A DNA stretch of 64,000 nt, taken from a phage. Shown in pieces: positions 1 through 10,741 of this stretch. The stretch lies in assembly GCA_036253495.1 (NCBI GenBank), contig GCA_036253495.1_4125.1; one strand, written 5' to 3'. Below the pieces are notes generated by a model. The model did no database searches, was not told the DNA's origin, and saw only the letters and a list, made by a program, of their open reading frames with translations. Each line of letters opens with the position of its first letter. Positions within the stretch are counted from its first letter, which is position 1. The position numbers and the translations under genes were made by a program.

Positions 1-20
1 ACCATATAAGGGTAACAGTT

Positions 21-110
21 ATGCACATGAATCCGTTCATAGTAGTAATTGCAATCATTATGGCAGTACAGGCCGTATTAGTTTACTTAAGCAAAGCAGG
101 AGTTATCTAA
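21..110 (+). CDS. hypothetical small hydrophobic peptide (29 aa)
   Basis: ATG21..TAA110 read by eye, below track cutoff; one hydrophobic helix. Confidence 0.25.
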   Translation: MHMNPFIVVIAIIMAVQAVLVYLSKAGVI

Positions 111-111
111 A

Positions 112-285
112 ATGATCCATGTAGAATTATCAGTACTGAAAGATTTGTTTTATCGGATGGGTACTACTGGCGAATATCCGAAGGGTGATACCGCAAAACT
201 TTTTGTATCACTCGACTTATGGCAACGCGAACAATTAGTAACGTCCTGGCGTAAAGGTAAAGCCGACAAGGGGGCCGTAGCATGA
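112..285 (+). CDS. hypothetical protein (57 aa)
   Basis: ATG112..TGA285 read by eye; stop overlaps next ATG. Confidence 0.3.
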   Translation: MIHVELSVLKDLFYRMGTTGEYPKGDTAKLFVSLDLWQREQLVTSWRKGKADKGAVA

Positions 286-431
286 AAGAATACATTTTCG
301 AAGTTACGTTTTTGGGTAAAGGTATGCATCAACTGATACGGTCCAGCGGATACAGTGTTAACCAGGCGTGGAATAACTTAAAACAAATGTACCCGAACGC
401 TATCACATATCGCAACCCTCGCGAGGCATAA
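282..431 (+). CDS. hypothetical protein (49 aa)
   Basis: ATG282..TAA431 read by eye; ATGA coupling. Confidence 0.3.
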   Translation: MKEYIFEVTFLGKGMHQLIRSSGYSVNQAWNNLKQMYPNAITYRNPREA

Positions 432-440
432 AATAAATTG

Positions 441-560
441 AAAAAAGGGATTGACTCCGGTCAGTCCCTTTGCTATTATATACGCATAGAAACAAATTAG
501 CCCACCGGGTGCATAAATGTATCTATTGTTTGCTGGTGGAGGTATTATCTAGTACTGAAA
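441..560. repeat. conserved intergenic element, copy 1 of 3
   Basis: AAAGGGA..TCCCTTT hairpin containing TTGACT-N17-TATTAT, GGGTGCATAAATGTATCTA box, GCTGGTGG at 532-539; near-identical at 3745 and 6823. Confidence 0.75.
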
Positions 561-578
561 ACTATTTTTAAAAAGTAC

Positions 579-645
579 TTGCATTGTACTTAGAATCAAG
601 TATAATGTTTTACATCAGGACGGGGAATGAAACAAGTAACCCCGT
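579..645 (+). promoter_or_regulatory. sigma70-like early promoter + 5' stem-loop
   Basis: -35 TTGCAT 579-584, -10 TATAAT 601-606, A/T-rich upstream, hairpin ACGGGG..CCCCGT 620-645. Confidence 0.6.
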
Positions 646-694
646 TAAGTAGTCCAGGAGTAAGACATAAGAAAACCTCCCCTGATAAAATAGT

Positions 695-722
695 TTGACA
701 ATAGAAAGTAAACGAGTATAAT
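695..722 (+). promoter_or_regulatory. sigma70-like promoter
   Basis: TTGACA 695-700, 16-nt spacer, TATAAT 717-722. Confidence 0.55.
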
Positions 723-754
723 ACTTACATCAACCACTGATAAGGAAACATAAA

Positions 755-1030
755 ATGCGGATTCTACTGACAGCTAACGAAATCGAGCAAGTACTGACTA
801 CTAACCTGGAACAATGGAAACGTGATGCAGATATCCAGGCGGTACAATGGCTTAACGATAAGTTAACGCCAGATGACTTAAGCAAGATTGTTGACCCTCA
901 ATTCTATGAAGATATTCACGACACGGCTTTAAGCGTCGAGGATGTACTTGATAAGCACTACATTGATATTGATTTGCAGGTTTACGGTCGTAAAAACTTT
1001 ATCACTATTCACGACATTTACAATACTTAA
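755..1030 (+). CDS. hypothetical early protein
   Basis: track ORF 91 aa; promoter upstream. Confidence 0.65.
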   Translation: MRILLTANEIEQVLTTNLEQWKRDADIQAVQWLNDKLTPDDLSKIVDPQFYEDIHDTALSVEDVLDKHYIDIDLQVYGRKNFITIHDIYNT

Positions 1031-1033
1031 GTA

Positions 1034-1092
1034 TTGACAAAGTATCTTAGTACTGTATAATAGTTTACATCAAGAGGGGAATGGTTCCCCTC
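1034..1092 (+). promoter_or_regulatory. sigma70-like early promoter + 5' stem-loop
   Basis: TTGACA 1034-1039, TATAAT 1056-1061, hairpin GAGGGGAATGGTTCCCCTC 1074-1092. Confidence 0.7.
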
Positions 1093-1115
1093 CTAACAAA
1101 GAGAGAGAAATAAAA

Positions 1116-1298
1116 ATGGCTAAGTGCACTATCTGTAAGAAAGAAATCGTATTAGTTCCAAGTGCCCGTGAACGTGCCGCTCGGTTCGGTGGCAAAGCGT
1201 CAGACTATACAAAAATGTTTACTGCCCATGCAGATTGCCAGGTAGCAAAACGTTCACAAGAAAGCGTAGAATTAATGCGTAAACTTTCCAAAAAATAA
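1116..1298 (+). CDS. hypothetical small Cys-containing protein
   Basis: track ORF 60 aa; SD GAGAGAGAAA; CxxC..HxxC. Confidence 0.65.
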   Translation: MAKCTICKKEIVLVPSARERAARFGGKASDYTKMFTAHADCQVAKRSQESVELMRKLSKK

Positions 1299-1302
1299 GT
1301 AT

Positions 1303-1363
1303 TGACAAAGTATCTTAGTACTGTATAATAGTTTACATCAAGTGAGGGGAATGGTTCCCCTCC
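1303..1363 (+). promoter_or_regulatory. sigma70-like early promoter + 5' stem-loop
   Basis: TTGACA 1303-1308, TATAAT 1325-1330, hairpin 1345-1363; same cassette as 1034. Confidence 0.7.
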
Positions 1364-1385
1364 TAACTAAAAGAGAGAAATAAAA

Positions 1386-1709
1386 ATGGCTATGATCCTC
1401 ACCCAGAAAGTAGAACTGAAAATTGTAACATCCTTTGACATTAAAGTTAATCGGTGGACTGATTCACACGGCAATACTTACCACTCTTGCTACGTGTCTG
1501 CGTTAATTGGCGACCGCTGGGAGGATTTAGGACATGAAACCTTTACTTACGGTTACGGCACACAAGGCGAATACACGGGCTTGGAGATCATTAAAGAAAC
1601 GGTTATAGGTTTCAACCCGAAAGAAAAAGTTATTCATCAAATAGAAAAAGAGATCAACAAAGAAATAACAGTTCGCTACAACGATGTAAAACGTAAGAAA
1701 GACATGTAA
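1386..1709 (+). CDS. hypothetical early protein
   Basis: track ORF 107 aa; cassette promoter+SD. Confidence 0.7.
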   Translation: MAMILTQKVELKIVTSFDIKVNRWTDSHGNTYHSCYVSALIGDRWEDLGHETFTYGYGTQGEYTGLEIIKETVIGFNPKEKVIHQIEKEINKEITVRYNDVKRKKDM

Positions 1710-1731
1710 TAGAATCCATTTAAAGTACTAT

Positions 1732-1760
1732 TTGACATTGCCCAGATAGTACTTTATAAT
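1732..1760 (+). promoter_or_regulatory. sigma70-like promoter
   Basis: TTGACA 1732-1737, 17-nt spacer, TATAAT 1755-1760. Confidence 0.6.
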
Positions 1761-1795
1761 AGACTCTAGCTTGTAGTACTAACTTAACTAATAGG

Positions 1796-2200
1796 ATGTA
1801 TACCATGATTACTAAATTCTACGCTACCCGTGAAGCTGCCCGTATTGTTGCACGCGAGGAAGGAGCAGCATTTAAAGACATGGGCACGACCGCACCGAAA
1901 GGCCAACGCTGGGCCGTACAGTTCAAAGAAATCTCTGATATTGTGAATTCACCTGAACCAGTACTAACAGCAGCAGAACAGAAGAAAGCTGATGAACTGT
2001 CAGCAGTACTTAACGCTCAAGATGAATTTATCGCGGGTTCTGATATCAAAGTACAGGTAAATGCTAATGCATGGACTCACGCGGATCACCTGGCTAACCT
2101 GAAGCGTCCAAGTGAACTGGTTCGCAACCAGAAAGAGATCCGACACGACCGTAAGGGTAATCGTGTAACAGTATACAGTAAACGCCGCCAGGTTATCTAA
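1796..2200 (+). CDS. hypothetical protein
   Basis: track ORF 134 aa (alt start ATG 1805). Confidence 0.65.
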   Translation: MYTMITKFYATREAARIVAREEGAAFKDMGTTAPKGQRWAVQFKEISDIVNSPEPVLTAAEQKKADELSAVLNAQDEFIAGSDIKVQVNANAWTHADHLANLKRPSELVRNQKEIRHDRKGNRVTVYSKRRQVI

Positions 2201-2222
2201 TAACTTGCAGTACTAACAACAC

Positions 2223-2248
2223 GGCGGGATCAGTTCCCGCCTTTTTTA
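2223..2248 (+). terminator. rho-independent terminator
   Basis: GGCGGGATCAGTTCCCGCC hairpin then TTTTTT. Confidence 0.75.
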
Positions 2249-2262
2249 TAGGATAAACTAAA

Positions 2263-2517
2263 ATGATTAAGGTACAACTATCTAAAGATAATATCTTGCG
2301 GGTACACTATAAAGCCCCTCAGAGAATCATCACAAAGGCCGTACAGCTTGCTAATGAGTTTATTAATGGTAATCTATTGCCCAGGAAGTTAAGCAACGGC
2401 AAACTGCGTGTAATCGATGTAGACACTAACAACAGGATAGTAATCGAGAATACCGGAAAGATAAACCTCTATGAACACCAACAATATAATAAGAAAATAA
2501 AACTAATATCACGTTGA
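2263..2517 (+). CDS. hypothetical protein
   Basis: track ORF 84 aa. Confidence 0.55.
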   Translation: MIKVQLSKDNILRVHYKAPQRIITKAVQLANEFINGNLLPRKLSNGKLRVIDVDTNNRIVIENTGKINLYEHQQYNKKIKLISR

Positions 2518-2542
2518 CAGTACTCAATTGTTTTAGTACTAT
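2514..2542 (+). promoter_or_regulatory. sigma70-like promoter
   Basis: TTGACA 2514-2519, 17-nt spacer, TACTAT 2537-2542. Confidence 0.55.
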
Positions 2543-2570
2543 GTATCTATACCAACACGGGAGAAACAAA

Positions 2571-2789
2571 ATGAAATTATCTAAAATCGAAAAGAAAACT
2601 ATTGATGAAGCAGTTAAGCACGGTTATACCTTTCGTAATGATTCACATTTTACCAATTTTCAACAAGGGTATCGTACTATTAAAAAACTAATTGACAAAG
2701 GTTTATTAGTTAAAGTAGATAACGGTAACGGCGTGGAGTATCAGCCAACACAAGACGCATTATCTTTAAAGAAATATGCAATTATCTAA
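2571..2789 (+). CDS. hypothetical protein (72 aa)
   Basis: track ORF begins at TTG inside promoter; SD GGGAGA + ATG 2571 preferred. Confidence 0.65.
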   Translation: MKLSKIEKKTIDEAVKHGYTFRNDSHFTNFQQGYRTIKKLIDKGLLVKVDNGNGVEYQPTQDALSLKKYAII

Positions 2790-2818
2790 TTGACAGTACT
2801 CAAATGTTTTAGTACTAT
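2790..2818 (+). promoter_or_regulatory. sigma70-like promoter
   Basis: TTGACA 2790-2795, 17-nt spacer, TACTAT 2813-2818; paralogous to 2514 promoter. Confidence 0.55.
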
Positions 2819-2854
2819 ATGTACATACCAACACGGAATAACTGGAGAAACAAA

Positions 2855-3082
2855 ATGATTAATATCTTAGAACGCATCAAAGAAACTACTACGCTGGTGG
2901 ATCTACTCAATGTACTGACTTTTAAAGTAACTCGGTTTAGTACTCCTGAATTTATCAACCTCATTGATAGTAAAGGTGAATACCGCATCACTATTGAAAA
3001 TGGTCGTGCTAATGTATTCAGTACTAAATCAGGTAAAACCGCAATTCATTCTGTAATTGCAAATAAAACTGTTGCAATCTAA
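2855..3082 (+). CDS. hypothetical protein (75 aa)
   Basis: SD GGAGAAA + ATG 2855; track start 2819 lies in promoter. Confidence 0.65.
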   Translation: MINILERIKETTTLVDLLNVLTFKVTRFSTPEFINLIDSKGEYRITIENGRANVFSTKSGKTAIHSVIANKTVAI

Positions 3083-3131
3083 TTAGTACTAACATATAAT
3101 AGTCACATCAAGGCAGGGAATACCTCCCTGC
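3072..3131 (+). promoter_or_regulatory. sigma70-like promoter + 5' stem-loop
   Basis: TTGCAA 3072-3077, TATAAT 3095-3100, hairpin GCAGGGA..TCCCTGC 3113-3131. Confidence 0.6.
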
Positions 3132-3151
3132 TATCTTAAAGAGTAAATGCA

Positions 3152-3736
3152 ATGCGTAATTATACTAAATTCATCCGGGCACTGGCAGAAATGGAAACTA
3201 ACAAAGAGATCCTTACAGCTTGTCGGTTGGCTGGTCTGGAGATCATCGGGGCCGGATCATCCCGTATCGTATTCGCTTTAAATGATCGGTTAGTGATTAA
3301 GGTCGCTAATTGTGACGCTGGCGTAGAACAAAATGAAACAGAATGTAAGGTATGGAATTTTTTAGATTATGACCGCCCTCACCTTAAACAGTACTTTGCT
3401 AAGGTGCATATGCATTTAAGCGATCCTGATAATATGTTTATTGTTATGGATCGTTTGAGTACTGCAAGCAAAGGCAGTGTAAAGCACGTTAACGCTTGCA
3501 ATGAATTAAAGTACAATGTCAAACGTAACACTATTGAACGCCAACACCATTTCGCTGATGCACTACAACACGTTGATGATACCTTATCAACACTAACGAT
3601 AAGAGATATCAGAAAGCAGAACATAGGCCAAGATCGCAATGGCCTGATTAAAGTACTTGATTACGGTTTAACCCGCAATATCTGGAATCAGTACTATAAA
3701 CAACGCGACGTAAAAGCCGTAACTATAACACGATAA
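3152..3736 (+). CDS. putative protein-kinase-like protein (atypical small Ser/Thr kinase fold)
   Basis: IIGAGSSRIVF (Gly-loop), VIKV (Lys), IRDIRKQN (catalytic loop), VLDYG (DFG-like) in kinase order. Confidence 0.45.
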   Translation: MRNYTKFIRALAEMETNKEILTACRLAGLEIIGAGSSRIVFALNDRLVIKVANCDAGVEQNETECKVWNFLDYDRPHLKQYFAKVHMHLSDPDNMFIVMDRLSTASKGSVKHVNACNELKYNVKRNTIERQHHFADALQHVDDTLSTLTIRDIRKQNIGQDRNGLIKVLDYGLTRNIWNQYYKQRDVKAVTITR

Positions 3737-3744
3737 AAAAGATT

Positions 3745-3870
3745 AAAAAAGGGATTGACTCCAGTCAGTCCCTTTGCTATTATATAGTCATTGAGAGATA
3801 ACTCACTGACCCATAGGGTGCATAAGTGTATCTATAATATAAGTATTGTCAGTACTGAAAACTATTTTAA
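3745..3870. repeat. conserved intergenic element, copy 2 of 3
   Basis: same hairpin/promoter-like module and GGGTGCATAAGTGTATCTA box as 441-560; no GCTGGTGG in this copy. Confidence 0.75.
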
Positions 3871-3878
3871 AAAAGTAC

Positions 3879-3940
3879 TTGCATTGTACTTAGAATCAAG
3901 TATAATGTTTTATATCGAGAGGGGGAAACGGTTCTCCCTG
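3879..3940 (+). promoter_or_regulatory. sigma70-like early promoter + 5' stem-loop
   Basis: TTGCAT 3879-3884, TATAAT 3901-3906, hairpin ~3919-3938; identical to 579-606. Confidence 0.7.
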
Positions 3941-3958
3941 GCAATAAGGAATAAAATC

Positions 3959-4180
3959 ATGACTACAATGACTTGCATTTACGCTTCCAATCTTCTGAAT
4001 GATGCGGCCTTTAATGTTGATTCAGAATATCAATGTTATCGGGATGAAAATAAAAAAGTTTTTGTAGTTGATAATAATGGTTTCCATATTGAATTGCAAT
4101 CCGGCTTCACTGGCGTTGATGGTAAATCAGTATGGGGCGTACAGGATGATAAAGGTACATATCATTTTAAACGTAATTAA
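3959..4180 (+). CDS. hypothetical early protein (73 aa)
   Basis: SD AAGGAATAAA + ATG 3959; track start 3791 spans promoter. Confidence 0.65.
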   Translation: MTTMTCIYASNLLNDAAFNVDSEYQCYRDENKKVFVVDNNGFHIELQSGFTGVDGKSVWGVQDDKGTYHFKRN

Positions 4181-4183
4181 GTA

Positions 4184-4242
4184 TTGACAAAGTATCTTAG
4201 TACTGTATAATAGTTTACATCAAGGGGAGAATAGTTCTCCCC
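4184..4242 (+). promoter_or_regulatory. sigma70-like early promoter + 5' stem-loop
   Basis: TTGACA 4184-4189, TATAAT 4206-4211, hairpin GGGGAGAATAGTTCTCCCC 4224-4242. Confidence 0.7.
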
Positions 4243-4263
4243 GATACTAAAAGGAATAAAATC

Positions 4264-4671
4264 ATGACTACTACTAATCAAGCTCGGTCCATCGCCAACG
4301 ATAAAAATCATGCTGCAATGGTCGCTGGTTACATTGAAGCTATGCAATTCAGTACTGTACACAATGAGAACGGCGAATACCTGGAAGATTATGAATTATC
4401 AGAGCAAGCCCATCAAGCGGCAGTGATTGCATGTTCACGTTTCCTTGCTGTACATGGTGAAGATATGGAAACAGTACAAAAACACCATAATCCTGATTAT
4501 ACTTATAATCATGCAGGTCATGATCTCTTTCTTACTCGCGAAGGTCACGGTACTGGCTTTTGGGATCGTGATATCGGTCACTATGACGATGTATTCACTA
4601 AGTACTGCGAAGAAATCAACGTTTGCGATCCCTATGTAGGCGATGATAATCTAATCTATATGGGCGAATAA
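4264..4671 (+). CDS. hypothetical early protein (His/Asp-rich)
   Basis: track ORF 135 aa; cassette promoter + SD AAAAGGAATAAA. Confidence 0.7.
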   Translation: MTTTNQARSIANDKNHAAMVAGYIEAMQFSTVHNENGEYLEDYELSEQAHQAAVIACSRFLAVHGEDMETVQKHHNPDYTYNHAGHDLFLTREGHGTGFWDRDIGHYDDVFTKYCEEINVCDPYVGDDNLIYMGE

Positions 4672-4677
4672 AAGTAC

Positions 4678-4736
4678 TTGACAAAGTATATCAGTACTGT
4701 ATAATAGTTTACATCAAGGGGAGAATAGTTCTCCCC
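4678..4736 (+). promoter_or_regulatory. sigma70-like early promoter + 5' stem-loop
   Basis: TTGACA 4678-4683, TATAAT 4700-4705, hairpin 4718-4736. Confidence 0.7.
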
Positions 4737-4758
4737 ACCAATAAAAGGAAACAACATT

Positions 4759-5031
4759 ATGTCAAGCTACTCCGCTACTATGATCATTAAAGATATGAAC
4801 GGTAATCCTACTTCTGCTGGTGGATCATTTGGAAACATTAACTTAGATGGTCGGTTATCAATGGAATCAGCCATCAATGCAGCGAAAGAAGTTTTTAAGA
4901 ATGAATGTACTGTAAGCAAGCTAGATTATATGGGCTTCGCTATCGAGAAAACTAAACGTTTTGTGGACTACAAAAATCCACTAATGATTGATACTAACCT
5001 GAAAGCTAACGAAGTGGAATACTTATTATGA
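4759..5031 (+). CDS. hypothetical early protein
   Basis: track ORF 90 aa; SD AAAAGGAAAC. Confidence 0.7.
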   Translation: MSSYSATMIIKDMNGNPTSAGGSFGNINLDGRLSMESAINAAKEVFKNECTVSKLDYMGFAIEKTKRFVDYKNPLMIDTNLKANEVEYLL

Positions 5032-5219
5032 CAGTTGAAGAAGTTAAAAAAGTACTGGCAGTACTACGCTATCATAATCATTGCAAGGTGAAGAATGATC
5101 CTGATTATGTTGATTCATCCCTGGAGGAAGACACCTTAAACGCGATAAGCCATATGCAAACATTAGCAAAGCGTATGACCGAAAAGAATAGGCCGGACTA
5201 TATCGGAAATAAAATTTAA
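5028..5219 (+). CDS. hypothetical protein
   Basis: track ORF 63 aa; ATGA overlap with previous. Confidence 0.6.
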   Translation: MTVEEVKKVLAVLRYHNHCKVKNDPDYVDSSLEEDTLNAISHMQTLAKRMTEKNRPDYIGNKI

Positions 5220-5226
5220 AAAGTAC

Positions 5227-5288
5227 TTGCATTGTAGTTAGATTAAAGTATAATGTTTTATATCGAGAGGGGGAAATGGTTTCCCCTC
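5227..5288 (+). promoter_or_regulatory. sigma70-like early promoter + 5' stem-loop
   Basis: TTGCAT 5227-5232, TATAAT 5249-5254, hairpin GAGGGGGAAATGGTTTCCCCTC. Confidence 0.7.
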
Positions 5289-5306
5289 AAGTCCAGGAGA
5301 TACACC

Positions 5307-5570
5307 ATGAACACTATCGAAATCACTATTAATGCTCACGTATACGACAACGTAGTACTGCAAACTACTATGACCGCTAACGATACCAGTACTTTGCGGA
5401 ATACTGTTATAAGTGCTGTATGTGCCGCTATCGGTGATGTATCCCTGGAAAATGCAGAACACATCAACAACGGTTTCACTATGTGCAAACGTGATAACGC
5501 AAAACATATCATCGTAGAAGGTTACGGCGGTGTAGAATATAACCTTTATATGAAAAAAGTACTTGCATAG
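5307..5570 (+). CDS. hypothetical early protein (87 aa)
   Basis: SD AGGAGA + ATG 5307; track start 5253 is in promoter. Confidence 0.65.
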   Translation: MNTIEITINAHVYDNVVLQTTMTANDTSTLRNTVISAVCAAIGDVSLENAEHINNGFTMCKRDNAKHIIVEGYGGVEYNLYMKKVLA

Positions 5571-5619
5571 TAACTAAAACAAAGTATAATGTTTTGCATA
5601 GGGGGAGATATCCTCCCCC
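5563..5619 (+). promoter_or_regulatory. sigma70-like early promoter + 5' stem-loop
   Basis: TTGCAT 5563-5568, TATAAT 5585-5590, hairpin GGGGGAGATATCCTCCCCC 5601-5619. Confidence 0.7.
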
Positions 5620-5638
5620 ACTAATAAGGAGTACTACG

Positions 5639-5863
5639 ATGGCTAATCATGATGAACTGATTCGGGAAGTAGCTAACCTGGCGGCAGAAAAGAAATCATT
5701 TGATTCTATCTATAACACCGCTCACCGTGATTCAGTACTGGCATGTAATCAGGATCAAAAAGATGAACTGATCGCAACCTATCATGAAGCATGGAAGTAT
5801 TACCGTCAATGGGAGAAAGAAGAAAAAGCATCAACCATAAGAGGATTAAATAATCTAGTATAA
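5639..5863 (+). CDS. hypothetical early protein (74 aa)
   Basis: SD TAAGGAG + ATG 5639; track start 5594 is in hairpin. Confidence 0.65.
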   Translation: MANHDELIREVANLAAEKKSFDSIYNTAHRDSVLACNQDQKDELIATYHEAWKYYRQWEKEEKASTIRGLNNLV

Positions 5864-5915
5864 CAATAAAAGGGGATGATAATATCCCCTTAATAATTTC
5901 TATAATAGGTTAACA

Positions 5916-6182
5916 ATGAAAAAGAAAACAACATATCGCTATAATAAAAATTATCAATCCGTTGTATTAGATCACTCTATGCTCCCGCTCGTTGTCCCTG
6001 CCGTTGGTGTAGTCTATCAATCCATATACTGGTCAAGGAAACAACAAAAGTACTTAAAAGGCCCACTAGCACGTTATGAGGGTAACGGTGTATGGTCCGA
6101 TCCGTTACATCCAATCACTACGCGTTATATTGAATATTTTCCTTATTGTGACTACATTGAAATACATCCTAAATTTAATTGA
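5916..6182 (+). CDS. hypothetical protein, paralog of 6263-6520
   Basis: track ORF 88 aa; shared LP..P..G..Y....W......Y.....Y.GNG.W.DP..PI pattern. Confidence 0.65.
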   Translation: MKKKTTYRYNKNYQSVVLDHSMLPLVVPAVGVVYQSIYWSRKQQKYLKGPLARYEGNGVWSDPLHPITTRYIEYFPYCDYIEIHPKFN

Positions 6183-6187
6183 TAGTA

Positions 6188-6241
6188 TTGACAGTACTAA
6201 CTGATAGTGTATAATGTTTTGCATAGGGGGAATACTCCCCC
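6188..6241 (+). promoter_or_regulatory. sigma70-like early promoter + 5' stem-loop
   Basis: TTGACA 6188-6193, TATAAT 6210-6215, hairpin GGGGGAATACTCCCCC 6226-6241. Confidence 0.7.
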
Positions 6242-6262
6242 AATATTAAAAGGGGAATCATC

Positions 6263-6520
6263 ATGGAACAATTCACACAATATCGGGTAAATCCTCAAGC
6301 TATGGCCTACGTAGAAGACCATAAAACGTTACCAGTACTGCAACCAGTTAAAGGCCGTATCTATCGTGGCCTTGCATGGAATACGGCCCAGGATGGATAT
6401 AAAACCGTTGCCGTGGGGATGTATTGCGGGAATGGTGAATGGTTTGATCCTAACAATCCGATTGCACTTGACAGTACTGAAAAAATGAAATGGGCCGACT
6501 ATATCGAGGATATCTCATAA
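6263..6520 (+). CDS. hypothetical protein, paralog of 5916-6182
   Basis: track ORF 85 aa; cassette promoter. Confidence 0.7.
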   Translation: MEQFTQYRVNPQAMAYVEDHKTLPVLQPVKGRIYRGLAWNTAQDGYKTVAVGMYCGNGEWFDPNNPIALDSTEKMKWADYIEDIS

Positions 6521-6526
6521 AACTAT

Positions 6527-6588
6527 TTGACAGTACTATCATATAGTGTATAATGTTTTACATAGAGCGGGGGAATAGTTCTCCCGCC
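6527..6588 (+). promoter_or_regulatory. sigma70-like early promoter + 5' stem-loop
   Basis: TTGACA 6527-6532, TATAAT 6549-6554, hairpin ~6565-6588. Confidence 0.7.
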
Positions 6589-6609
6589 AATAGTTTGGAG
6601 TAAAACATT

Positions 6610-6810
6610 ATGTCAATCGCTATCGCCCTGGTTGAAGTACTGAAAGAAGCTAAAGCTAACCTGATCGACGTAAAGATCCAGGAACTACAATCCGGCTTAA
6701 TCGGCTGTACTTGTACCGCTGGTGGGGCGACAGATTATCGTGAATTCGAATCACTCGAATCTATGGTTCGGTATCTTACAATGATCGTGGAAGATTGGAA
6801 GATCATCTAA
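6610..6810 (+). CDS. hypothetical early protein
   Basis: track ORF 66 aa; SD TTTGGAG. Confidence 0.65.
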   Translation: MSIAIALVEVLKEAKANLIDVKIQELQSGLIGCTCTAGGATDYREFESLESMVRYLTMIVEDWKII

Positions 6811-6822
6811 CAAAAAAGAATA

Positions 6823-6960
6823 AAAAAAGGGATTGACTCCGGTCAGTCCCTTTGCTATTATATACGCATAGACAAAAACTAGCCCACAGGGTGCATAGGT
6901 GTATCTAAAATATATAGTTAATAACGGTGAGTAACTATCTGCTGGTGGAGTGAAAACTAT
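6823..6960. repeat. conserved intergenic element, copy 3 of 3
   Basis: same module as 441-560; GGGTGCATAGGTGTATCTA; GCTGGTGG at 6941-6948. Confidence 0.75.
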
Positions 6961-6973
6961 TAATAAAAAACTA

Positions 6974-7002
6974 TTGACAAAGTATAGCAGTACTGCAATA
7001 AT
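6974..7002 (+). promoter_or_regulatory. sigma70-like promoter
   Basis: TTGACA 6974-6979, 17-nt spacer, AATAAT 6997-7002 (weaker -10). Confidence 0.5.
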
Positions 7003-7055
7003 GTATCTCGTAGGGCGGCAATGGTGCGACGGTCCACAAAGTTAGGAGATTCAAA

Positions 7056-7388
7056 ATGAGTACTTCAATCGCTATCGTAAACGCTTTCATCCGTACCAAT
7101 GTTTCATCTGTATTCATTGACGGGCTGGATCGGGAAGTAGAATACTCAATCATTATCGCACAAACTGCAAACGGTGCTCGGTATATCCTCAATGATAGTG
7201 AAGCAAATCACTACTACTACACTAAAGCTACTGGCTTTAAACGCATCGATGCGGACGTAGTATACGCTAAGATGAATAAGCTGGTAGACAAGATTAACGC
7301 TAAAGGTACTATCGATTTACAGTACTGGACCGAAACCGATCCAGAATATGGATCACATCGCTACCTGAATCCAGGTATTAAAATGTAA
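7056..7388 (+). CDS. hypothetical protein
   Basis: track ORF 110 aa; SD TTAGGAGA. Confidence 0.65.
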   Translation: MSTSIAIVNAFIRTNVSSVFIDGLDREVEYSIIIAQTANGARYILNDSEANHYYYTKATGFKRIDADVVYAKMNKLVDKINAKGTIDLQYWTETDPEYGSHRYLNPGIKM

Positions 7389-7395
7389 AAAGTAC

Positions 7396-7458
7396 TTGCA
7401 TAGTACTTAGTAAAGTGTATAATGTTTTACATAGAGAGGGGGAAATGGTTCTCCCTCC
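7396..7458 (+). promoter_or_regulatory. sigma70-like early promoter + 5' stem-loop
   Basis: TTGCAT 7396-7401, TATAAT 7418-7423, hairpin GAGGGGGAAATGGTTCTCCCTC. Confidence 0.7.
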
Positions 7459-7477
7459 TAAATTAAGGAGTTTTATC

Positions 7478-7879
7478 ATGACCTTCTCAATCACTTCTTA
7501 CGCTGACGTTTTAGTACTGGCTCGGACTTTTGGTAAAGATGCACTGGAGTACGCTGTAAGTAATGGTACTATCCAACCGGAGCAGTGCCGCATCATTGGA
7601 AACTGCAAACGTTGGGCGGTATCCAATACTATTGCACTGGAAAACTTCAACGATGGCAACAATGAATATTCTGTTGATGTAGTATTCGAAGCCGTTGATC
7701 TCGGCGGTATCTATAACACTAACCTGAATGATGTGCGTATCGTTCGCACGGGGTTCGGTGCTTATGATGTATCTATTCGTGAAGCTATGAACACCGGATA
7801 CATTAGCAAGGACTTACTTGCTCACATCATGCAGCTGTGGACGGAACGTAACGAAGCACGCACTATCTTAGGACTGTAA
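7478..7879 (+). CDS. hypothetical early protein (133 aa)
   Basis: SD TAAGGAG + ATG 7478; track start 7415 is in the -10. Confidence 0.65.
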   Translation: MTFSITSYADVLVLARTFGKDALEYAVSNGTIQPEQCRIIGNCKRWAVSNTIALENFNDGNNEYSVDVVFEAVDLGGIYNTNLNDVRIVRTGFGAYDVSIREAMNTGYISKDLLAHIMQLWTERNEARTILGL

Positions 7880-7903
7880 GCATTACACATCACCAAACAT
7901 CAT

Positions 7904-7923
7904 AGGCCGCTCTCTAGCGGCCT
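7904..7923 (+). other. GC-rich stem-loop without T-tract
   Basis: AGGCCGCTCTCTAGCGGCCT perfect inverted repeat; mRNA-stability or processing site candidate. Confidence 0.4.
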
Positions 7924-7947
7924 TAACTATATCAGGAGTACACACAC

Positions 7948-8157
7948 ATGATCTATACAGTATACAGCGTTCTAGGTACTATTGCAGGCGTACACGATAA
8001 CGTCAATGATGCTATGCGTACAGTACTGCAACAGGTTCCACTAAAGCCTAAGACTATTAAGCAGATGACAGCACGACTAACCAGGGCAAAGGCTGGCGGT
8101 GAAGTCTGGCAGGACTACGCGGATACGCAGATTATCATTGCAGTAAGTAATGATTAA
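7948..8157 (+). CDS. hypothetical protein
   Basis: track ORF 69 aa; SD CAGGAG. Confidence 0.6.
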   Translation: MIYTVYSVLGTIAGVHDNVNDAMRTVLQQVPLKPKTIKQMTARLTRAKAGGEVWQDYADTQIIIAVSND

Positions 8158-8202
8158 TGAATTAAATGATTCAGTACTAAAACTATTAGTCAGAAAATAA
8201 TC

Positions 8203-8231
8203 GGTGCATTTTTAAAATGCATCGTTTTTTA
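8203..8231 (+). terminator. rho-independent terminator
   Basis: GGTGCATT..AATGCATC hairpin then GTTTTTT. Confidence 0.6.
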
Positions 8232-8339
8232 TTTTAACCAGTACACTATAACGTATGAAATAGTTTCGACCTGTTATTATAACTTAGGGCAACTAGGGGC
8301 GGGTAATTGCTTAGCTCGTGTGAAGGGGTTCATAGGGTA

Positions 8340-8369
8340 TTGACTTTTTATATGAATCGTGTATTATAT
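8340..8369 (+). promoter_or_regulatory. sigma70-like promoter of the GTNYQ-family array
   Basis: TTGACT 8340-8345, TATTAT 8362-8367. Confidence 0.5.
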
Positions 8370-8397
8370 GATTGATATTAATTTTAAGGGAGTCCCT

Positions 8398-8595
8398 ATG
8401 CGTATTTTAACACAAGAAGAGCATCACGAAAGACTTATCAATAACATGGCTATGATAATGTATAAGTCTCATAAACGTGGTAATGCCTATAAACGTGAAT
8501 TAGTTATGGAACTATTCTTAGGAACTAACTTACAAAATGAATATGTTAAACTATATGTAAAAGAGTTATGTTTAGAGATAAATGGTAAACTATGA
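8398..8595 (+). CDS. GTNYQ-family small protein
   Basis: SD AAGGGAG + ATG 8398; motif LFLGTNLQ. Confidence 0.7.
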   Translation: MRILTQEEHHERLINNMAMIMYKSHKRGNAYKRELVMELFLGTNLQNEYVKLYVKELCLEINGKL

Positions 8596-8792
8596 AAATG
8601 CGTACATTAACTCAAGATGAATATCATCATATACTACGTAAAAACACGGCAAGAATTTACCAAAGCAATGTGCACTTAGAAAGAGTTGAGTTGTACCTGT
8701 TGATTACGATGGGAACAAACTATCAGGAAGTGTGGATAACTCACTATTTGGAATCTTTGAAAGCTGACATACGAGCTAGGAGAAAACTATGA
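8592..8792 (+). CDS. GTNYQ-family small protein
   Basis: track ORF; TMGTNYQ; ATGA coupling; near-duplicate of 8789-8989. Confidence 0.75.
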   Translation: MKMRTLTQDEYHHILRKNTARIYQSNVHLERVELYLLITMGTNYQEVWITHYLESLKADIRARRKL

Positions 8793-8989
8793 AAATGCGT
8801 ACATTAACCGAAAAAGAATATCAAGCTCTACTACGTAAAAACATGGTAAGGATTTACCAAAGCGATGTGCACTTAGAAAGAGTTGAGTTGTACCTTTTGA
8901 TTACAATGGGAACCAACTATCAGGAAGCATTGATATCGAAATATTTGGAATCTTTGAAAGCTGACATACGAGCGAGGTGCAAACATTGA
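8789..8989 (+). CDS. GTNYQ-family small protein
   Basis: track ORF; TMGTNYQ; near-duplicate of 8592-8792. Confidence 0.75.
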   Translation: MKMRTLTEKEYQALLRKNMVRIYQSDVHLERVELYLLITMGTNYQEALISKYLESLKADIRARCKH

Positions 8990-9195
8990 AAATCATAACA
9001 CAGACACAAGCATTTGGTCGTATATTGAAATACCTTGATGACATGATAGATATACATAGTGACCTCCCTAAAACTGTAATCGACGCCAAAAGAGCAGAAT
9101 ATCGCATGATGGCTGTACTGAACACAAACTTTCAGGAAGAGTATGTCAATGATTGGATTGGATTTTTAATTGAAGATATAAAGAGTAAACTATGA
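8986..9195 (+). CDS. GTNYQ-family small protein
   Basis: TTG 8986 after SD GAGGTG (track uses GTG 8977); motif LNTNFQ. Confidence 0.6.
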   Translation: MKIITQTQAFGRILKYLDDMIDIHSDLPKTVIDAKRAEYRMMAVLNTNFQEEYVNDWIGFLIEDIKSKL

Positions 9196-9404
9196 TTATA
9201 TTAACACCAGAGCAATATAGGAAACGTTACAATTCTAAGCAGATTGAAATCTTGCTGATATATGCAGACAGGGATGATGTATACTTATCAAAAGTTATGG
9301 AAAAAGAATTACTTATGGGTGTCTTCTTAGGAACTGACCACCAGAAATCTTATGTCCAAGAGTATCTAATAGCTCTTGAGAAATACATCAGGAGTAAACT
9401 ATGA
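9192..9404 (+). CDS. GTNYQ-family small protein
   Basis: track ORF; FLGTDHQ; ATGA coupling. Confidence 0.7.
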   Translation: MIILTPEQYRKRYNSKQIEILLIYADRDDVYLSKVMEKELLMGVFLGTDHQKSYVQEYLIALEKYIRSKL

Positions 9405-9625
9405 ACTGCATTAATAACTTTGAATACGAGGCTCGCTCAAGGTGTGCATCTCAAAAAGAGAACCACATTTACTTCACTATGATGTACTTATCTTGGAATG
9501 AAATTGAAGAAATGGTTGCTGAAGTATGGCTGTTTGAATTCATGGGGACGCAGTATCAGAATAGGTTTGTGGGTGAGTATCTTAATGTTCTTATGAAACA
9601 TATAGAAAGAAAGGGAATGAACTAA
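9401..9625 (+). CDS. GTNYQ-family small protein
   Basis: track ORF; FMGTQYQ. Confidence 0.7.
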   Translation: MNCINNFEYEARSRCASQKENHIYFTMMYLSWNEIEEMVAEVWLFEFMGTQYQNRFVGEYLNVLMKHIERKGMN

Positions 9626-9876
9626 TGAAAGTATTATCAAGCACTGAGTATCAATCTGCCCTATTCTCTTTACTAAACACCCTTCGCAAGAACAATGAAC
9701 TTTATCCTTCCCCTGAGAATGATGTAGTTAATGGTGACGTGTTTCTACTTAAATTCGTTGGAACTAATAAACAAGATATCTTCACTGATCGTTATATCAA
9801 TGCACTAAGAAACCTTGTAGCGTATAAAACCCGCCAGGCCAAAAGAGAATGGAAGAGACAATGCGATCCAGAATAA
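9625..9876 (+). CDS. GTNYQ-family small protein
   Basis: track ORF; FVGTNKQ. Confidence 0.7.
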   Translation: MKVLSSTEYQSALFSLLNTLRKNNELYPSPENDVVNGDVFLLKFVGTNKQDIFTDRYINALRNLVAYKTRQAKREWKRQCDPE

Positions 9877-10109
9877 ATCACATCATGTACGTTAAACTAT
9901 TTCAGAAACTAATCCACAAACACTATGATACAGTATCTGATAAACTCACTAATGATATCAGCAGACTTATTCACTGTGAAGCAGAGATGCTTGTACTGAT
10001 GACGGGAGACGATACACAAACAATCTCTAAGGCAATAGAGAACTATCTGGAAGCATATCAACAACATATAAGAACGGAAGTCTGGAGACGAGAGAATGAA
10101 AATCCTTAG
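9861..10109 (+). CDS. GTNYQ-family small protein (divergent)
   Basis: ATG 9861 (track 9849); degenerate motif MTGDDTQ. Confidence 0.55.
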   Translation: MRSRINHIMYVKLFQKLIHKHYDTVSDKLTNDISRLIHCEAEMLVLMTGDDTQTISKAIENYLEAYQQHIRTEVWRRENENP

Positions 10110-10311
10110 TGGGTATGAATATTACAGGCTGTTGCGAACTATACAAGCAAAAGTTTCTAGTATTTCTTTAAACAAATCTATTGCACAAGTGGACAAATGT
10201 GTTATAATAACTGAAATGAAGCTATCTATCTTCATTGGGACAAACTATCAAAGCATCTACACTGACGCATGGTTAGCAAGTCTACGTAACAAGGTGATAT
10301 CCAGAGAATGA
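10096..10311 (+). CDS. GTNYQ-family small protein
   Basis: track ORF; FIGTNYQ. Confidence 0.7.
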   Translation: MKILSGYEYYRLLRTIQAKVSSISLNKSIAQVDKCVIITEMKLSIFIGTNYQSIYTDAWLASLRNKVISRE

Positions 10312-10526
10312 AAAAATTACAAGGTTTTGAATATATTAAGCTTCTGCAAACCTGTGAAATCCAAAGAAGAAAGATTCAAAAGGCTAAAAGAATTACCGCA
10401 GAACGAAAGTTTACACTGATAACTGAAGTCTATGTAGAGGCACTCTTAGGCACAAACTATCAACAAACGTATATAGACCTATGGATTGATGCACTCCAGA
10501 AAGAGGTTAAAAGTAAATGCAAATGA
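10308..10526 (+). CDS. GTNYQ-family small protein
   Basis: track ORF; LLGTNYQ; ATGA coupling. Confidence 0.7.
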   Translation: MKKLQGFEYIKLLQTCEIQRRKIQKAKRITAERKFTLITEVYVEALLGTNYQQTYIDLWIDALQKEVKSKCK

Positions 10527-10741
10527 TTAATTTAAGTAAAGATGAATATTATGTACGTCTTGCAAAAACTTATTCATTACGCAAGGCCATTTATGAAAGT
10601 CACATTATTGAACAATCAAATAAGTGGATTGTAGTAAATGAAATCAAGATGCTTTCAGTCTTAGGAACAAACTATCAAGCGAGTGCTGTACTGAAGGTCA
10701 TTAATGCACTTCAAAATGAGGTCCAAAGTAAATGCAAATGA
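10517..10741 (+). CDS. GTNYQ-family small protein
   Basis: track ORF; VLGTNYQ; starts MQM overlapping ..KCK stop. Confidence 0.7.
   Translation: MQMINLSKDEYYVRLAKTYSLRKAIYESHIIEQSNKWIVVNEIKMLSVLGTNYQASAVLKVINALQNEVQSKCK

Follow-up and report, generated by a model that had tools for sequence, protein, structure and literature searches.

What is the function of an intergenic element that recurs directly after the open reading frames (ORFs) ending at positions 431, 3736 and 6810 of this phage DNA? The original prediction described a triplicated element of roughly 120 bp. Within the window (the entire 64-kb stretch that was analyzed), the three copies are present with all of the features ascribed to them, but that description was incomplete. 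On comparison with related phages, the element is a composite of two separable parts: a hairpin that overlaps a promoter (module A) and an RNA module (module B), each of which is also found apart from the other. Module B occurs in 8–12 copies per terminal repeat, on both strands. The Chi sites are independent of both. About 200 nt can be aligned among the three window copies, including the next early promoter, and high identity is confined to the hairpin/promoter and a conserved box. Copy 2 has an extra small hairpin (3792–3805) that copies 1 and 3 lack. Taken as a whole, the locus is probably a terminator/promoter cassette and a conserved early RNA, within a direct terminal repeat (DTR) that carries a one-directional array of Chi sites.

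The closest matches of the window are Asteriusvirus genomes, and by sequence comparison it is itself an Asteriusvirus, i.e., a PBECO4/121Q-like (Rak2-like) jumbo coliphage of E. coli. The Asteriusvirus genomes compared are close relatives and not independent samples. The homologous stretch falls within the annotated DTR of phage vB_Ec-M-J, and PhageTerm and restriction digests have confirmed the DTR of phage fEgEco12. The DTR limits given here for the window (~8.3 kb) and for fHe-Yen9-03 (17.5 kb) are our own estimates. In the window, the repeat adjoins the left genome end, and its other copy lies at the right end. Its G+C content is 38–39%, versus 32–34% for the rest of the genome.

The repeat is best explained as an early region that would be transcribed by the host RNA polymerase. 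Phages T5 (with its pre-early genes) and SPO1 also have long direct terminal repeats, densely filled with small early genes that follow strong host-type promoters. We know of no sequence relationship between these repeats and the one studied here. A distant relative, PA5oct, likewise has a long direct terminal repeat of small early genes with strong host-type promoters, which is expressed early and includes two abundant ncRNAs (PMC7318152). However, its sequence is unrelated to this repeat, and it has no Chi array. Coordinates of the features in the window are given in Table 1.

Table 1. Predicted features of the terminal repeat in the window
Feature	Position	Strand	Evidence or context
Right-hand ~8.3 kb of ~21-kb DTR	1–8305	+	Homology to vB_Ec-M-J (DTR 1–21525) and fEgEco12 (DTR 20,993 bp, experimentally verified termini)
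Copy 1 hairpin, stem 444–455/460–471, loop UCCG 456–459	444–471	+	13 nt past stop codon 429–431; predicted intrinsic terminator of upstream gene; fold, covariation
Copy 1 sigma-70 promoter, -35 451–456, 17-nt spacer, TG 471–472, -10 TATTAT 474–479	451–479	+	10/12 match with TG
Copy 1 predicted start	near A486	+	Spacing
Copy 1 module B, stem-less: A-rich 488–499, hairpin 2 500–510 (GCCC-ACC-GGGU), GC box 511–526	482–530	+	Covariance model 35.7 bits, E = 1.3e-4; box match
Chi GCTGGTGG, intergenic	532–539	+	2 nt past copy 1 module B
AGTACTGAA	551–559		Just upstream of promoter 579–606
Standard early promoter TTGCAT-N16-TATAAT after copy 1	579–606	+	Copy 1 transcript would run into it
Chi within ORF 2819–3082	2893–2900	+	Phase 2, ..LVD..; DTR-wide array
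Copy 2 hairpin, loop UCCA	3748–3775	+	12 nt past stop of protein-kinase-like gene 3152–3736
Copy 2 promoter, -35 3755–3760, -10 3778–3783	3755–3783	+	Predicted start near A3790
Copy 2 module B, full: hairpin 1 3792–3795/3802–3805 (UGAG-AGAUAA-CUCA), hairpin 2 3809–3819, GC box 3820–3835	3786–3839	+	Covariance model 72.7 bits, E = 3e-13; covariation
AGTACTGAA	3851–3859	+	After copy 2
Next promoter after copy 2	~3879–3906	+
Chi within ORF 4759–5031	4816–4823	+	Phase 0, AGG; DTR-wide array
Chi within ORF 6610–6810	6718–6725	+	Phase 0, AGG; DTR-wide array
Copy 3 hairpin	6826–6853	+	16 nt past stop codon 6808–6810
Copy 3 promoter, -35 6833–6838, -10 6856–6861	6833–6861	+	Predicted start near A6868
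Copy 3 module B, stem-less: hairpin 2 6882–6892, GC box 6893–6908	6870–6912	+	Covariance model 42.5 bits, E = 3.5e-6
Chi, intergenic	6941–6948	+	~1.36 kb from inferred right DTR boundary
Next promoter after copy 3	6974–7002	+	Promoter scan

A hairpin that overlaps a predicted promoter

Module A contains the 39-mer AAAGGGATTGACTCC(G/A)GTCAGTCCCTTTGCTATTATATA at 444–482, 3748–3786 and 6826–6864 (0, 1 and 0 mismatches), which is absent elsewhere in the 64 kb, with 0 occurrences expected. All three copies are scored both by a promoter scan, as TTGACT-N17-TATTAT with TG just upstream, and by a terminator scan, as a 12-pair hairpin resembling a terminator. This agrees with the overlap that had been predicted. 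Specifically, the TTGACT -35 hexamer sits inside the 5′ arm of the 12-bp hairpin and is followed by a 17-nt spacer and TGnTATTAT; an A-tract is present upstream in this sigma-70 promoter. The fold is stable in copy 1 (-19.5 kcal/mol, z = -5.3) and copy 2 (-18.7 kcal/mol, z = -5.7). Downstream of the hairpin, an interruption in the U-tract (UUUGCUAUUAU) means that termination may be incomplete.

The hairpin could be a mere intrinsic terminator, whose likeness to a promoter arises by accident in an AT-rich genome and from the complementarity of TTGAC and GTCAA. Homologous hairpins in phage G17 are annotated (by ARNOLD) solely as terminators, and chance promoter matches are plentiful in the AT-rich DNA of the window (50 found versus 31 expected). 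However, we compared 30 distinct copies of the cassette from five genera, and TTGAC is invariant in 30/30, in contrast to the freely changing remainder of the stem. The -10 element is nearly invariant, TAT(T/A)(A/C)T, is kept at a spacing of 17–18 nt and is preceded by TG or T-rich sequence. At three loci (L017:16164 and ECO103 317003 and 321902), the cassette alone lies directly upstream of a ribosome-binding site and ATG, as the sole promoter. Moreover, module B begins in a fixed register after the cassette. A hairpin that acts only in termination is therefore very unlikely. The homologous site in fHe-Yen9-03 is annotated as -35/-10 signals.

The stem is itself conserved as a structure: compensatory changes occur at four stem pairs among the 30 copies, and pairing is also kept by wobble changes. 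Opposite TTGAC, the only changes are wobble-compatible, and the G·U pairs are possible only in + strand RNA. The fixed spacing of the -35 and -10 elements and the covarying stem thus support the predicted function of module A as a bifunctional terminator/promoter.

The known kind closest to module A is the PeSL (promoter-early stem-loop) cassette of T4-like phages, which was shown experimentally both to terminate and to promote transcription (Arbiol et al. 2010, PMC2839356; Comeau et al. 2014, PMC4122927). Rak2-like phages are distant relatives of T4. In both cases, repeated intergenic cassettes with an AT-rich upstream tract lie between small orphan early genes and flank insertion/deletion boundaries between related phages, and a consensus sigma-70 promoter is overlapped by a stable stem-loop that ends upstream transcription. 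By contrast, the -35 element is always inside the stem here, while the stem in RB49 and phi1 is usually between -35 and -10 or over -10. Downstream of the window promoters lie a conserved RNA module and a second promoter, instead of a start codon with its Shine-Dalgarno sequence. Also, the terminal repeat is fixed here, unlike in circularly permuted T4-type genomes, and activity is predicted from sequence.

A candidate early RNA downstream of the promoter

The conserved box, GGGTGCATA(A/G)(A/G)TGTATCTA (507–525, 3816–3834 and 6889–6907), is the 3′ part of the ~55-nt module B. This module comprises an optional hairpin 1 on the 5′ side, whose loop is A-rich and whose stem varies with covariation, then hairpin 2, which is almost invariant (ACCC-NNN-GGGU), and a GC box, GCNNANNUGUAUCUAU. 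Based on its conservation, we read module B as a previously undescribed family of small, structured early RNAs. Of the 51 copies, 49 have a sigma-70 match (9/12 or better) immediately upstream, 37 of them in identical register, compared to 8.7% of random positions. A covariance model gave 59 matches in 572 kb, including a whole 352-kb genome; all are within DTRs and none outside. Searches of Rfam and of host genomes with the module found no match, and we saw none outside Enterobacterales phages.

The box had been proposed as a possible regulator binding site. Accordingly, the box and hairpin 2 could be a double-stranded DNA operator at about +20 to +45, at which a phage or host regulator shuts off the early promoters. 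As DNA, hairpin 2 is palindromic (ACCC-NNN-GGGT) and could serve as a protein-binding site, the adjacent box is 80–95% conserved between genera, and the constant distance from the promoter suits an operator as much as an RNA. In addition, the RNA fold is weak (z ~0, with helices of just 4 bp), and helix 1 is missing in 13/53 copies, among them window copies 1 and 3. However, helix 1 has ~15 different stem sequences and every one is complementary, a pattern that marks a single-stranded fold rather than sequence-specific DNA binding. Compensatory changes occur at 4/4 of its pairs, with 97–98% of cells paired in an alignment fitted to the structure and seeded with rows picked for a hairpin of uniform geometry; 0/500 shuffles reached the observed value. 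In helix 2, C-G is replaced by U-A in two copies, while other copies in the same genome are unchanged. Finally, the minus-strand copies carry their own terminator at a fixed distance. An operator is thus unlikely, and the box is better read as part of a transcribed module, given its fixed register after the promoter and RNA-type covariation.

The two orientations of this putative RNA differ in what follows it. On the minus strand, a terminator with a GC hairpin follows seven isolated copies at +21 to +23, which suggests that these copies are stand-alone genes for ~100-nt RNAs. The + strand copies are without their own terminator and lead into a downstream promoter and gene.

Module B might instead be a cis-acting signal that modifies RNA polymerase, allowing transcripts that start at these specific promoters to pass the repeat's many terminators, which the terminator scan places every 1–3 kb. 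It is strictly promoter-proximal, and the + strand copies continue into downstream genes. Its layout, in which a conserved single-stranded box comes after a hairpin whose loop is rich in purines, is somewhat like that of boxB and boxA. As in lambda nut (boxA/boxB) and HK022 put, module B is a short RNA with small hairpins and a linear box, in multiple copies per early region. This resemblance concerns layout only, since neither boxA nor boxB is matched in sequence, the order of the parts differs, and the copies here are far more numerous, on both strands and sometimes directly followed by a terminator. Moreover, the hairpin is missing from a quarter of the copies, and read-through would be needless because nearly every gene has its own promoter. 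The minus-strand copies terminate 22 nt on, where read-through would yield antisense RNA, and tail-to-tail convergent pairs make little sense for this function. We therefore regard antitermination as quite improbable and retain the reading of module B as an early RNA.

Under this reading, the hairpin directly after the upstream stop codon would end the upstream transcript, and the same DNA would serve as a strong sigma-70 promoter, in a PeSL-like design. Transcription from the cassette would begin ~7 nt past the -10 element, with module B as the start of the transcript. In the + orientation found in the window, the module would form the 5′ end of a transcript running into the next early promoter and gene, while the isolated minus-strand copies elsewhere in the repeat would produce RNAs on their own. 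The module is established by comparison; as to its function, we infer an abundant immediate-early RNA family that may act via a protein partner recognizing hairpin 2 and the box.

Oriented Chi sites in the terminal repeat

The Chi octamers GCTGGTGG that were predicted beside copies 1 and 3 are present on the + strand, but they belong to a larger set. The first 7 kb of the window have five, all on the + strand (532, 2893, 4816, 6718 and 6941); the three that had escaped the original prediction are all intragenic. The only other site in the window is on the - strand (46190), and the expectation for the two strands of the 64 kb together is 0.39. The DTRs of five lineages contain 41 sites on the + strand and 7 on the - strand, versus 2.2 expected, which bears out the expectation of an oriented excess beyond chance. 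Their density is 400–700 per Mb in the DTR versus ~50 per Mb elsewhere, and the 10–13 kb adjacent to the DTRs have none. Only 11/48 sites are at most 150 nt from a module, compared to 7.3 by chance (P = 0.12). Rather than forming part of the repeated element, Chi is a property of the entire terminal repeat.

Chi could also be a by-product of composition, codon use or repeat copying, unrelated to RecBCD. The DTR exceeds the remaining genome in G+C content, two of the window sites are in repeated intergenic sequence, and many coding sites encode Ala-Gly-Gly. However, even when trained on the DTR, an order-3 Markov model predicts at most 0.6 sites per strand, whereas the five DTRs have 9, 7, 12, 7 and 6 on the + strand (P from 1e-6 to 1e-12). 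Chi is also the commonest GC-rich octamer, with 41 occurrences versus 13 for the runner-up, and neither count supports a compositional origin. The sites are at different, non-homologous positions in the five genera, in intergenic DNA, all three coding phases and promoter spacers of either strand, yet are nearly always on the + strand. The PA5oct DTR, at 36.5% GC, has zero. An origin as a by-product is extremely improbable.

Phage P1 and the LLS class of lambdoid phages provide precedents, and the orientation rule for Chi and RecBCD is established (Subramaniam and Smith 2022; PMC12315714). In these phages too, the exact host Chi is far above expectation and is the top GC-rich octamer, the sites are in or near terminal repeats or one end, mostly oriented so as to activate RecBCD that enters from that end, and the proposed use is circularization or recombination-dependent replication driven by RecBCD and RecA. 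However, the phages studied here are virulent ~350-kb myoviruses with exact 20–22-kb direct repeats, not temperate headful or cos phages, and their array is confined to the repeat, with a RecBCD role that is predicted from sequence. They also encode UvsX and gp46/47, unlike the Chi-rich LLS class, which has "no Rec module".

The + orientation fits RecBCD entry from the right genome end, not from the left end beside the window copy. In fEgEco12, 10 sites are on the + strand and 2 on the - strand, and the last + strand site lies 1,361 bp short of the right end; sites facing the left end number only 0–2 per repeat. The proposal of RecBCD attenuation thus holds in spirit, given an excess of + strand Chi that recurs at different positions in five lineages, but the sites lie outside the element and the end concerned would be the right one.

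Beyond this demonstrated enrichment and orientation, we infer a mechanism in which the + strand sites in the right-hand repeat copy are oriented toward the genome end. RecBCD that enters at this end would encounter Chi within 0.4–1.4 kb, stop degradation and load RecA. Such a response would shield the incoming DNA and favor invasion of the left-hand copy of the repeat, which would give circularization, concatemers or recombination-primed replication.

A repeated element in the distal terminal repeat

The original prediction placed three copies of an intergenic element directly after reading frames ending at 431, 3736 and 6810, and these positions hold. The 39-nt hairpin/promoter segment occurs three times (444, 3748 and 6826) with at most one mismatch, and at no other site in the 64 kb. 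A conserved box lies at 507, 3816 and 6889, and Chi, the E. coli RecBCD recombination octamer, is on the + strand at 532 and 6941. The copies can be aligned over ~200 nt, including the next early promoter, and the hairpin of a copy folds with -19.5 kcal/mol (z = -5.3). The repetition is confirmed and is far beyond chance.

The first 7 kb of the window are 90-94% identical to Asteriusvirus genomes (PBECO4, 121Q, G17, A4 and others), with numerous indels. Their counterpart in phage vB_Ec-M-J lies at 14.6-19.4 kb within an annotated direct terminal repeat (DTR) of 21,525 bp. By alignment, the right DTR boundary is at about window position 8,305, which puts the element copies in the terminal repeat's distal third. 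Small orphan genes make up this region, and a separate consensus sigma-70 promoter precedes nearly every one of them. Few DTR genes have a predicted function; among them is the gene just 5′ of copy 2 (3152-3736), whose counterparts in fEgEco12 (g044), ph0011, Muenster and fENko-Kae01 are annotated as a serine/threonine protein kinase. Directly past the inferred boundary, at 8359-12000, the architecture shifts to tandem, tightly packed and overlapping paralogous genes of ~66-72 codons (families D4-D6), which form 197-215-bp periodic repeats and have neither individual promoters nor Chi.

A profile built from the copies was run against the DTRs of Escherichia phage vB_Ec-M-J, Klebsiella phages Muenster and fENko-Kae01, Pectobacterium phage CBB and Yersinia phage fHe-Yen9-03. 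In these five lineages, the two halves of the element occur independently. We call the hairpin with its promoter module A, and the ~55-nt segment with the box that follows a promoter module B. Members of the element family occur in 65 records of Rak2-like phages that infect Enterobacterales, and a scan of IMG/VR for the hairpin pattern matched only 121Q, CBB and GAP32.

A putative terminator hairpin combined with a promoter

In all three window copies, module A consists of an A-tract, TTGACT, 17 nt and TGnTATTAT. The hairpin is intergenic, begins 12-16 nt past the upstream stop codon and overlaps the promoter. An alignment of 30 distinct copies separates two kinds of constraint. TTGAC is invariant, and the -10 element follows the pattern T-A-T-(T/A)-(A/C)-T at 17-18 nt from the -35 element, suggesting that both are selected as DNA. 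In the same alignment, the distal four stem pairs exhibit compensatory double changes (G-C to A-U, U-A or C-G), and changes in the 3′ arm facing the fixed TTGAC are restricted to those giving U.G, U-A or G.U pairs. Only in the + strand RNA can these wobbles pair, and the stem therefore appears to be under selection at the RNA level, within the upstream transcript, i.e., as a terminator. The loops vary freely (UCCG, UUCG, UAAG, ACAG, AUAU and others).

The stem of the window copies has 12 bp and a UNCG-type loop, and is followed by the U-rich UUUGCUAUUAU, as expected of an intrinsic terminator; since the U-tract is interrupted, the terminator's strength is uncertain. Independent GenBank annotation marks the hairpins as terminators in G17, and the same site as -35/-10 signals in fHe-Yen9-03.

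The closest described counterpart is the promoter-early stem-loop (PeSL) cassette of T4-like phages, in which an AT-rich tract leads into a sigma-70 promoter overlapped by a stem-loop (PMC2839356, PMC4122927). For PeSLs, promoter and terminator activity have been measured, and a role in the shuffling of orphan genes was described (PMC2839356, PMC4122927). The Rak2-like phages are distant relatives of T4 (CBB genome paper). Module A shares with PeSLs the AT-rich tract with a consensus sigma-70 early promoter, as well as the stable intergenic stem-loop that overlaps the promoter just past the upstream gene. In contrast to the classical PeSL, the -35 element of module A is invariably inside the stem, and the window promoters lead to module B and a second promoter rather than to a Shine-Dalgarno sequence and ATG; the 3′ end of the window cassettes has neither a Shine-Dalgarno sequence nor a start codon. 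Elsewhere, the cassette is the sole promoter before a ribosome-binding site and ATG (L017:16164 in fENko-Kae01; 317003 and 321902 in ECO103). The proposed terminator/promoter function is supported by the invariant TTGAC and the covarying stem, and the cassette corresponds to a known kind (PeSL) in a new configuration.

Relative to vB_Ec-M-J, the window has a gene-sized insertion at 5825-6247 (ORF 5916-6182). Its edges, a bidirectional terminator (5870-5891) and a consensus promoter (6188-6215), match the pattern that would be expected of cassette-mediated gene shuffling.

A probable RNA motif downstream of early promoters

Module B consists of helix 1, helix 2 (ACCC-NNN-GGGU) and the GC box GCNNANNUGUAUCUAU, usually with AGUACUGAA next. 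Helix 1 is represented by ~15 stem sequences, every one of which is complementary, and has a purine-rich or A-rich loop (AGAUAA, GAGAAA, GCGAAA, AGAACAA). A sigma-70 promoter matching at least 9 of 12 positions lies immediately 5′ of 49 of 51 copies, compared to 8.7% of random DTR positions, and 37 of these 49 share an identical register. The promoter is either of the hairpin type or an ordinary early promoter.

As loop and linker lengths vary, a MAFFT alignment of all 41 copies puts helix 1 out of register. Therefore, we built a covariance model from a uniform subset and realigned the copies with it. In the seed of 14 sequences, 99% of the cells are paired and all four pairs of helix 1 undergo double changes; neither shuffled alignments nor slid registers come close. 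The 59-hit alignment, which was fitted to the structure and is biased in its favor, has helix 1 paired in 97%, with covariation in 4 of 4 pairs, and two C-G to U-A changes in helix 2. Helix 1 is absent in 13 of 53 distinct copies, leaving only an A-rich stretch; in the window, copies 1 and 3 have this reduced form and copy 2 the full one. A third helix inside the box was dropped, given that positions 3-10 and 4-9 pair only in some copies. The helices are short, and folding energies are no better than those of shuffled sequences (z-scores of ~0), so that the case rests on covariation and promoter register. On this basis, the box most likely belongs to a new and well-supported RNA motif family.

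The search covered 572 kb, among them one complete genome (352 kb) and the window of 64 kb, and all 59 model hits are inside DTRs. Each repeat has 8-12 copies, ~30% of them in minus-strand orientation. Where a minus-strand copy is isolated, a GC hairpin terminator follows at +21 to +23 nt, giving what would be a stand-alone gene for a ~100-nt RNA. For + strand copies, the next early promoter is at +19 to +60. Some copies form convergent pairs (see table), tail to tail and ~10 nt apart, each copy with its own promoter; such a pair is a ~200-bp inverted repeat, and a read-through RNA would form a long hairpin.

Rfam 15 covariance models had no match in window positions 1-9000 at E-values up to 1, which argues against a known RNA family. 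Host origin or mimicry was likewise rejected: the exact pattern is absent from 185,579 species genomes, and blastn searches of E. coli complete genomes found no match. Within the phage collection, module B is confined to Rak2-like phages.

The original prediction listed a regulator binding site among the possible roles of the element. The covariation and promoter register of module B instead make the box probably part of a transcribed RNA motif, and our best inference is that module B is an abundant immediate-early RNA family recognized by a protein via helix 2 and the box. A nut- or put-like element or an operator is a possible alternative. Helix 2, which hardly varies, also reads as a palindrome in the DNA, and the general layout, though only that, resembles the lambda nut and rrn antitermination sites; no aligned copy has a boxA consensus (CGCUCUUA or UGCUCUUUAACAA) beside a boxB hairpin. 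We also rejected the 12-nt RfaH ops site (GGCGGTAGnnTG, non-template strand), which few copies resemble: an ops-like GCGGTAGTGT occurs in a few (e.g., Muenster 5047-), and most, including all window copies, have GCGGAGAT or GCATAAGT. A mini-ORF in the box (RTG TAT CTA, with R of ATG or GTG as start) conflicts with the covarying hairpin, and its start is not kept in fENko-Kae01 (AGTCTG, AGTCCG, AATCCG). As an RNA family, module B has a possible parallel in the distant relative PA5oct, whose DTR is transcribed early and includes two highly expressed ncRNAs (PMC7318152); the resemblance is one of analogy, not homology.

Two further observations concern early transcripts. At ~+8 of nearly every standard early promoter, before the ribosome-binding site, lies a 5′ hairpin (G-rich/C-rich, GAGGGGAAUGGUUCCCCUC type), which is, after module B, another RNA feature repeated among these transcripts. 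Separately, the window promoter at 579-606 leads into ~85 nt with paired segments (ACGGGG...CCCCGU, AUCAGG...CCUGAU). The stretch 579-694, also found in vB_Ec-M-J (3665-3856), has only a 23-codon ORF before the next consensus promoter (695-722), and could be another small RNA or a micro-protein gene.

Positions of repeated early-region features, and Chi counts per DTR
Feature	Phage	Coordinates	Chi, + strand	Chi, - strand
GAGGGGAAUGGUUCCCCUC-type 5′ hairpins	window	1063-1100, 1331-1365, 3915-3940, 4222-4245, 5265-5290, 6566-6590, 7436-7460		
Convergent module B pairs	CBB	L018:984-1100, 3794-3910, 20816-20932		
Convergent module B pairs	fHe-Yen9-03	L019:281-416, 2545-2662		
Convergent module B pair	vB_Ec-M-J	L001:3507-3611		
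Convergent module B pair	fENko-Kae01	L017:7254-7376		
Back-to-back Chi pair	vB_Ec-M-J	L001:588-607		
Back-to-back Chi pair	fEgEco12	L020:578-597		
Back-to-back Chi pair	fENko-Kae01	L017:484-503		
Chi per DTR	vB_Ec-M-J		9	2
Chi per DTR	fEgEco12		10	2
Chi per DTR	ECO103 4-12-1		9	2
Chi per DTR	Muenster		7	1
Chi per DTR	fENko-Kae01		12	2
Chi per DTR	CBB		7	2
Chi per DTR	fHe-Yen9-03 (first 17.5 kb)		6	0

An oriented Chi array in the terminal repeat

Within genes, the window has three further + strand Chi sites (2893, 4816 and 6718). Apart from these and the two intergenic sites, the 64 kb have a single Chi, on the - strand at 46190, and 0.39 are expected for the whole window. Each DTR has 6-12 + strand sites (see table) where at most 0.6 are expected under an order-3 Markov model trained on that DTR (P from 5e-6 to 2e-12). 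None of the seven tabulated phages has a + strand Chi in the next 9.5-13 kb past the DTR, and the sole Chi there is a - strand site in fHe-Yen9-03. The remaining 331 kb of the ECO103 genome have 7 (+) and 10 (-) sites, compared to 4.9 and 3.7 expected, i.e., no clear enrichment and no bias. The array is confined to the DTR, where Chi occurs neither at chance frequency nor in random orientation.

The DTRs of the five lineages together have 41 + strand and 7 - strand sites. Chi is their commonest octamer with at least six G/C (41, versus 13 for the next), and by minimum count it ranks 19th of 36,586 octamers, below only promoter words containing AGTACT. Its positions differ among genera. Some sites are intergenic, and others fall within genes, in each of the three coding phases, or in the spacers of promoters on either strand; throughout these settings, Chi keeps to the + strand. 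The predicted link to RecBCD gains from this oriented, repeat-wide array. By contrast, Chi as an integral part of the element was rejected: copy 2 and most homologues have none, and 11 of 48 sites are within 150 nt of module B versus 7.3 by chance (P = 0.12).

The 39-kb DTR of the Pseudomonas relative PA5oct (L021 1-39080), which is similar in GC content, contains a single Pseudomonas-type Chi (GCTGGCGC, - strand) and none of the E. coli type, with no enrichment of either. Therefore, the array is not universal in the wider phage family, and it is limited to the examined lineages that infect Enterobacterales.

Another over-represented sequence is the palindrome CAGTACTG (core AGTACT), with 151 copies versus 21 expected in 101 kb (window 1-8300 and the DTRs of the five lineages). 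It is found in promoter spacers, just 5′ of the -10 element, and in the DNA that follows module B. Such an excess of a palindrome is uncommon among phages and suggests that it binds a protein or has a structural role.

Chi on the upper strand is recognized by RecBCD entering from the right end (PMC12315714), so that, in the right-hand copy of the repeat, the array is directed at the right genome end. The last + strand Chi is 0.4-1.4 kb from the right DTR end, and the left end is faced by 0-2 sites only. Most notable among these is a back-to-back pair of Chi sites, CCACCAGC-N4-GCTGGTGG, which three phages (see table) have at ~0.5-0.6 kb from the left terminus and which is a perfect inverted repeat. 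It lies in a gene-free terminal stretch of 1-1.7 kb with a module B copy at ~1 kb. CBB and fHe-Yen9-03 do not have this pair, and their module B copy at ~1 kb is in a convergent pair.

LLS phages, a Chi-rich lambdoid class, have 20 of 23 Chi sites in the active orientation near one end (PMC12315714). As in P1 and the LLS class, the exact host Chi is strongly over-represented in Rak2-like DTRs, clusters in the terminal repeat and is mostly oriented for RecBCD entering from that end. However, the LLS class has no recombination module of its own, whereas Rak2-like phages have UvsX and gp46/47; homologues of these, UvsW and endonuclease VII are listed for CBB (CBB genome paper). The array is genuine, oriented and repeat-wide. 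It is of the kind seen in P1 and LLS phages, here in a new phage type. It would protect the incoming DNA end before any phage protein exists, and would also deliver this end to RecA, so that it could invade the second copy of the repeat. Circularization through the repeats had already been proposed for fEgEco12 by its authors, who did not mention Chi, and we found no mention of Chi, RecBCD or module B RNAs in the searchable papers on Rak2-like phages.

A broader reading, which we regard as rather unlikely, is that the terminal repeat is an integrated "landing pad". In the first minutes of infection, its 8-12 immediate-early structured RNAs, of a kind absent from Rfam, would act on a protein of the host or of the phage, for instance RNA polymerase, Hfq or a defence factor, and reprogram it. 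The one-directional Chi array would hand the incoming right end from RecBCD to RecA, and the end would invade the left repeat and prime a first replication round co-directional with early transcription.

Rak2-like phages are among the largest phages of E. coli and Klebsiella, and therapy development is under way. Their regulation is wholly uncharacterized, as are more than 80% of their genes. Our analysis yields a testable map of early transcription units, with PeSL-type cassettes whose terminator stem carries the -35 hexamer, and a covariance model usable for annotating an RNA family confined to the terminal repeat. In addition, a virulent jumbo phage with its own recombination genes appears to exploit host Chi and RecBCD at one defined end. 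If true, this use of Chi would extend the P1/LLS picture to lytic phages, and it predicts host rec genotypes that are restrictive for Rak2-like phages.
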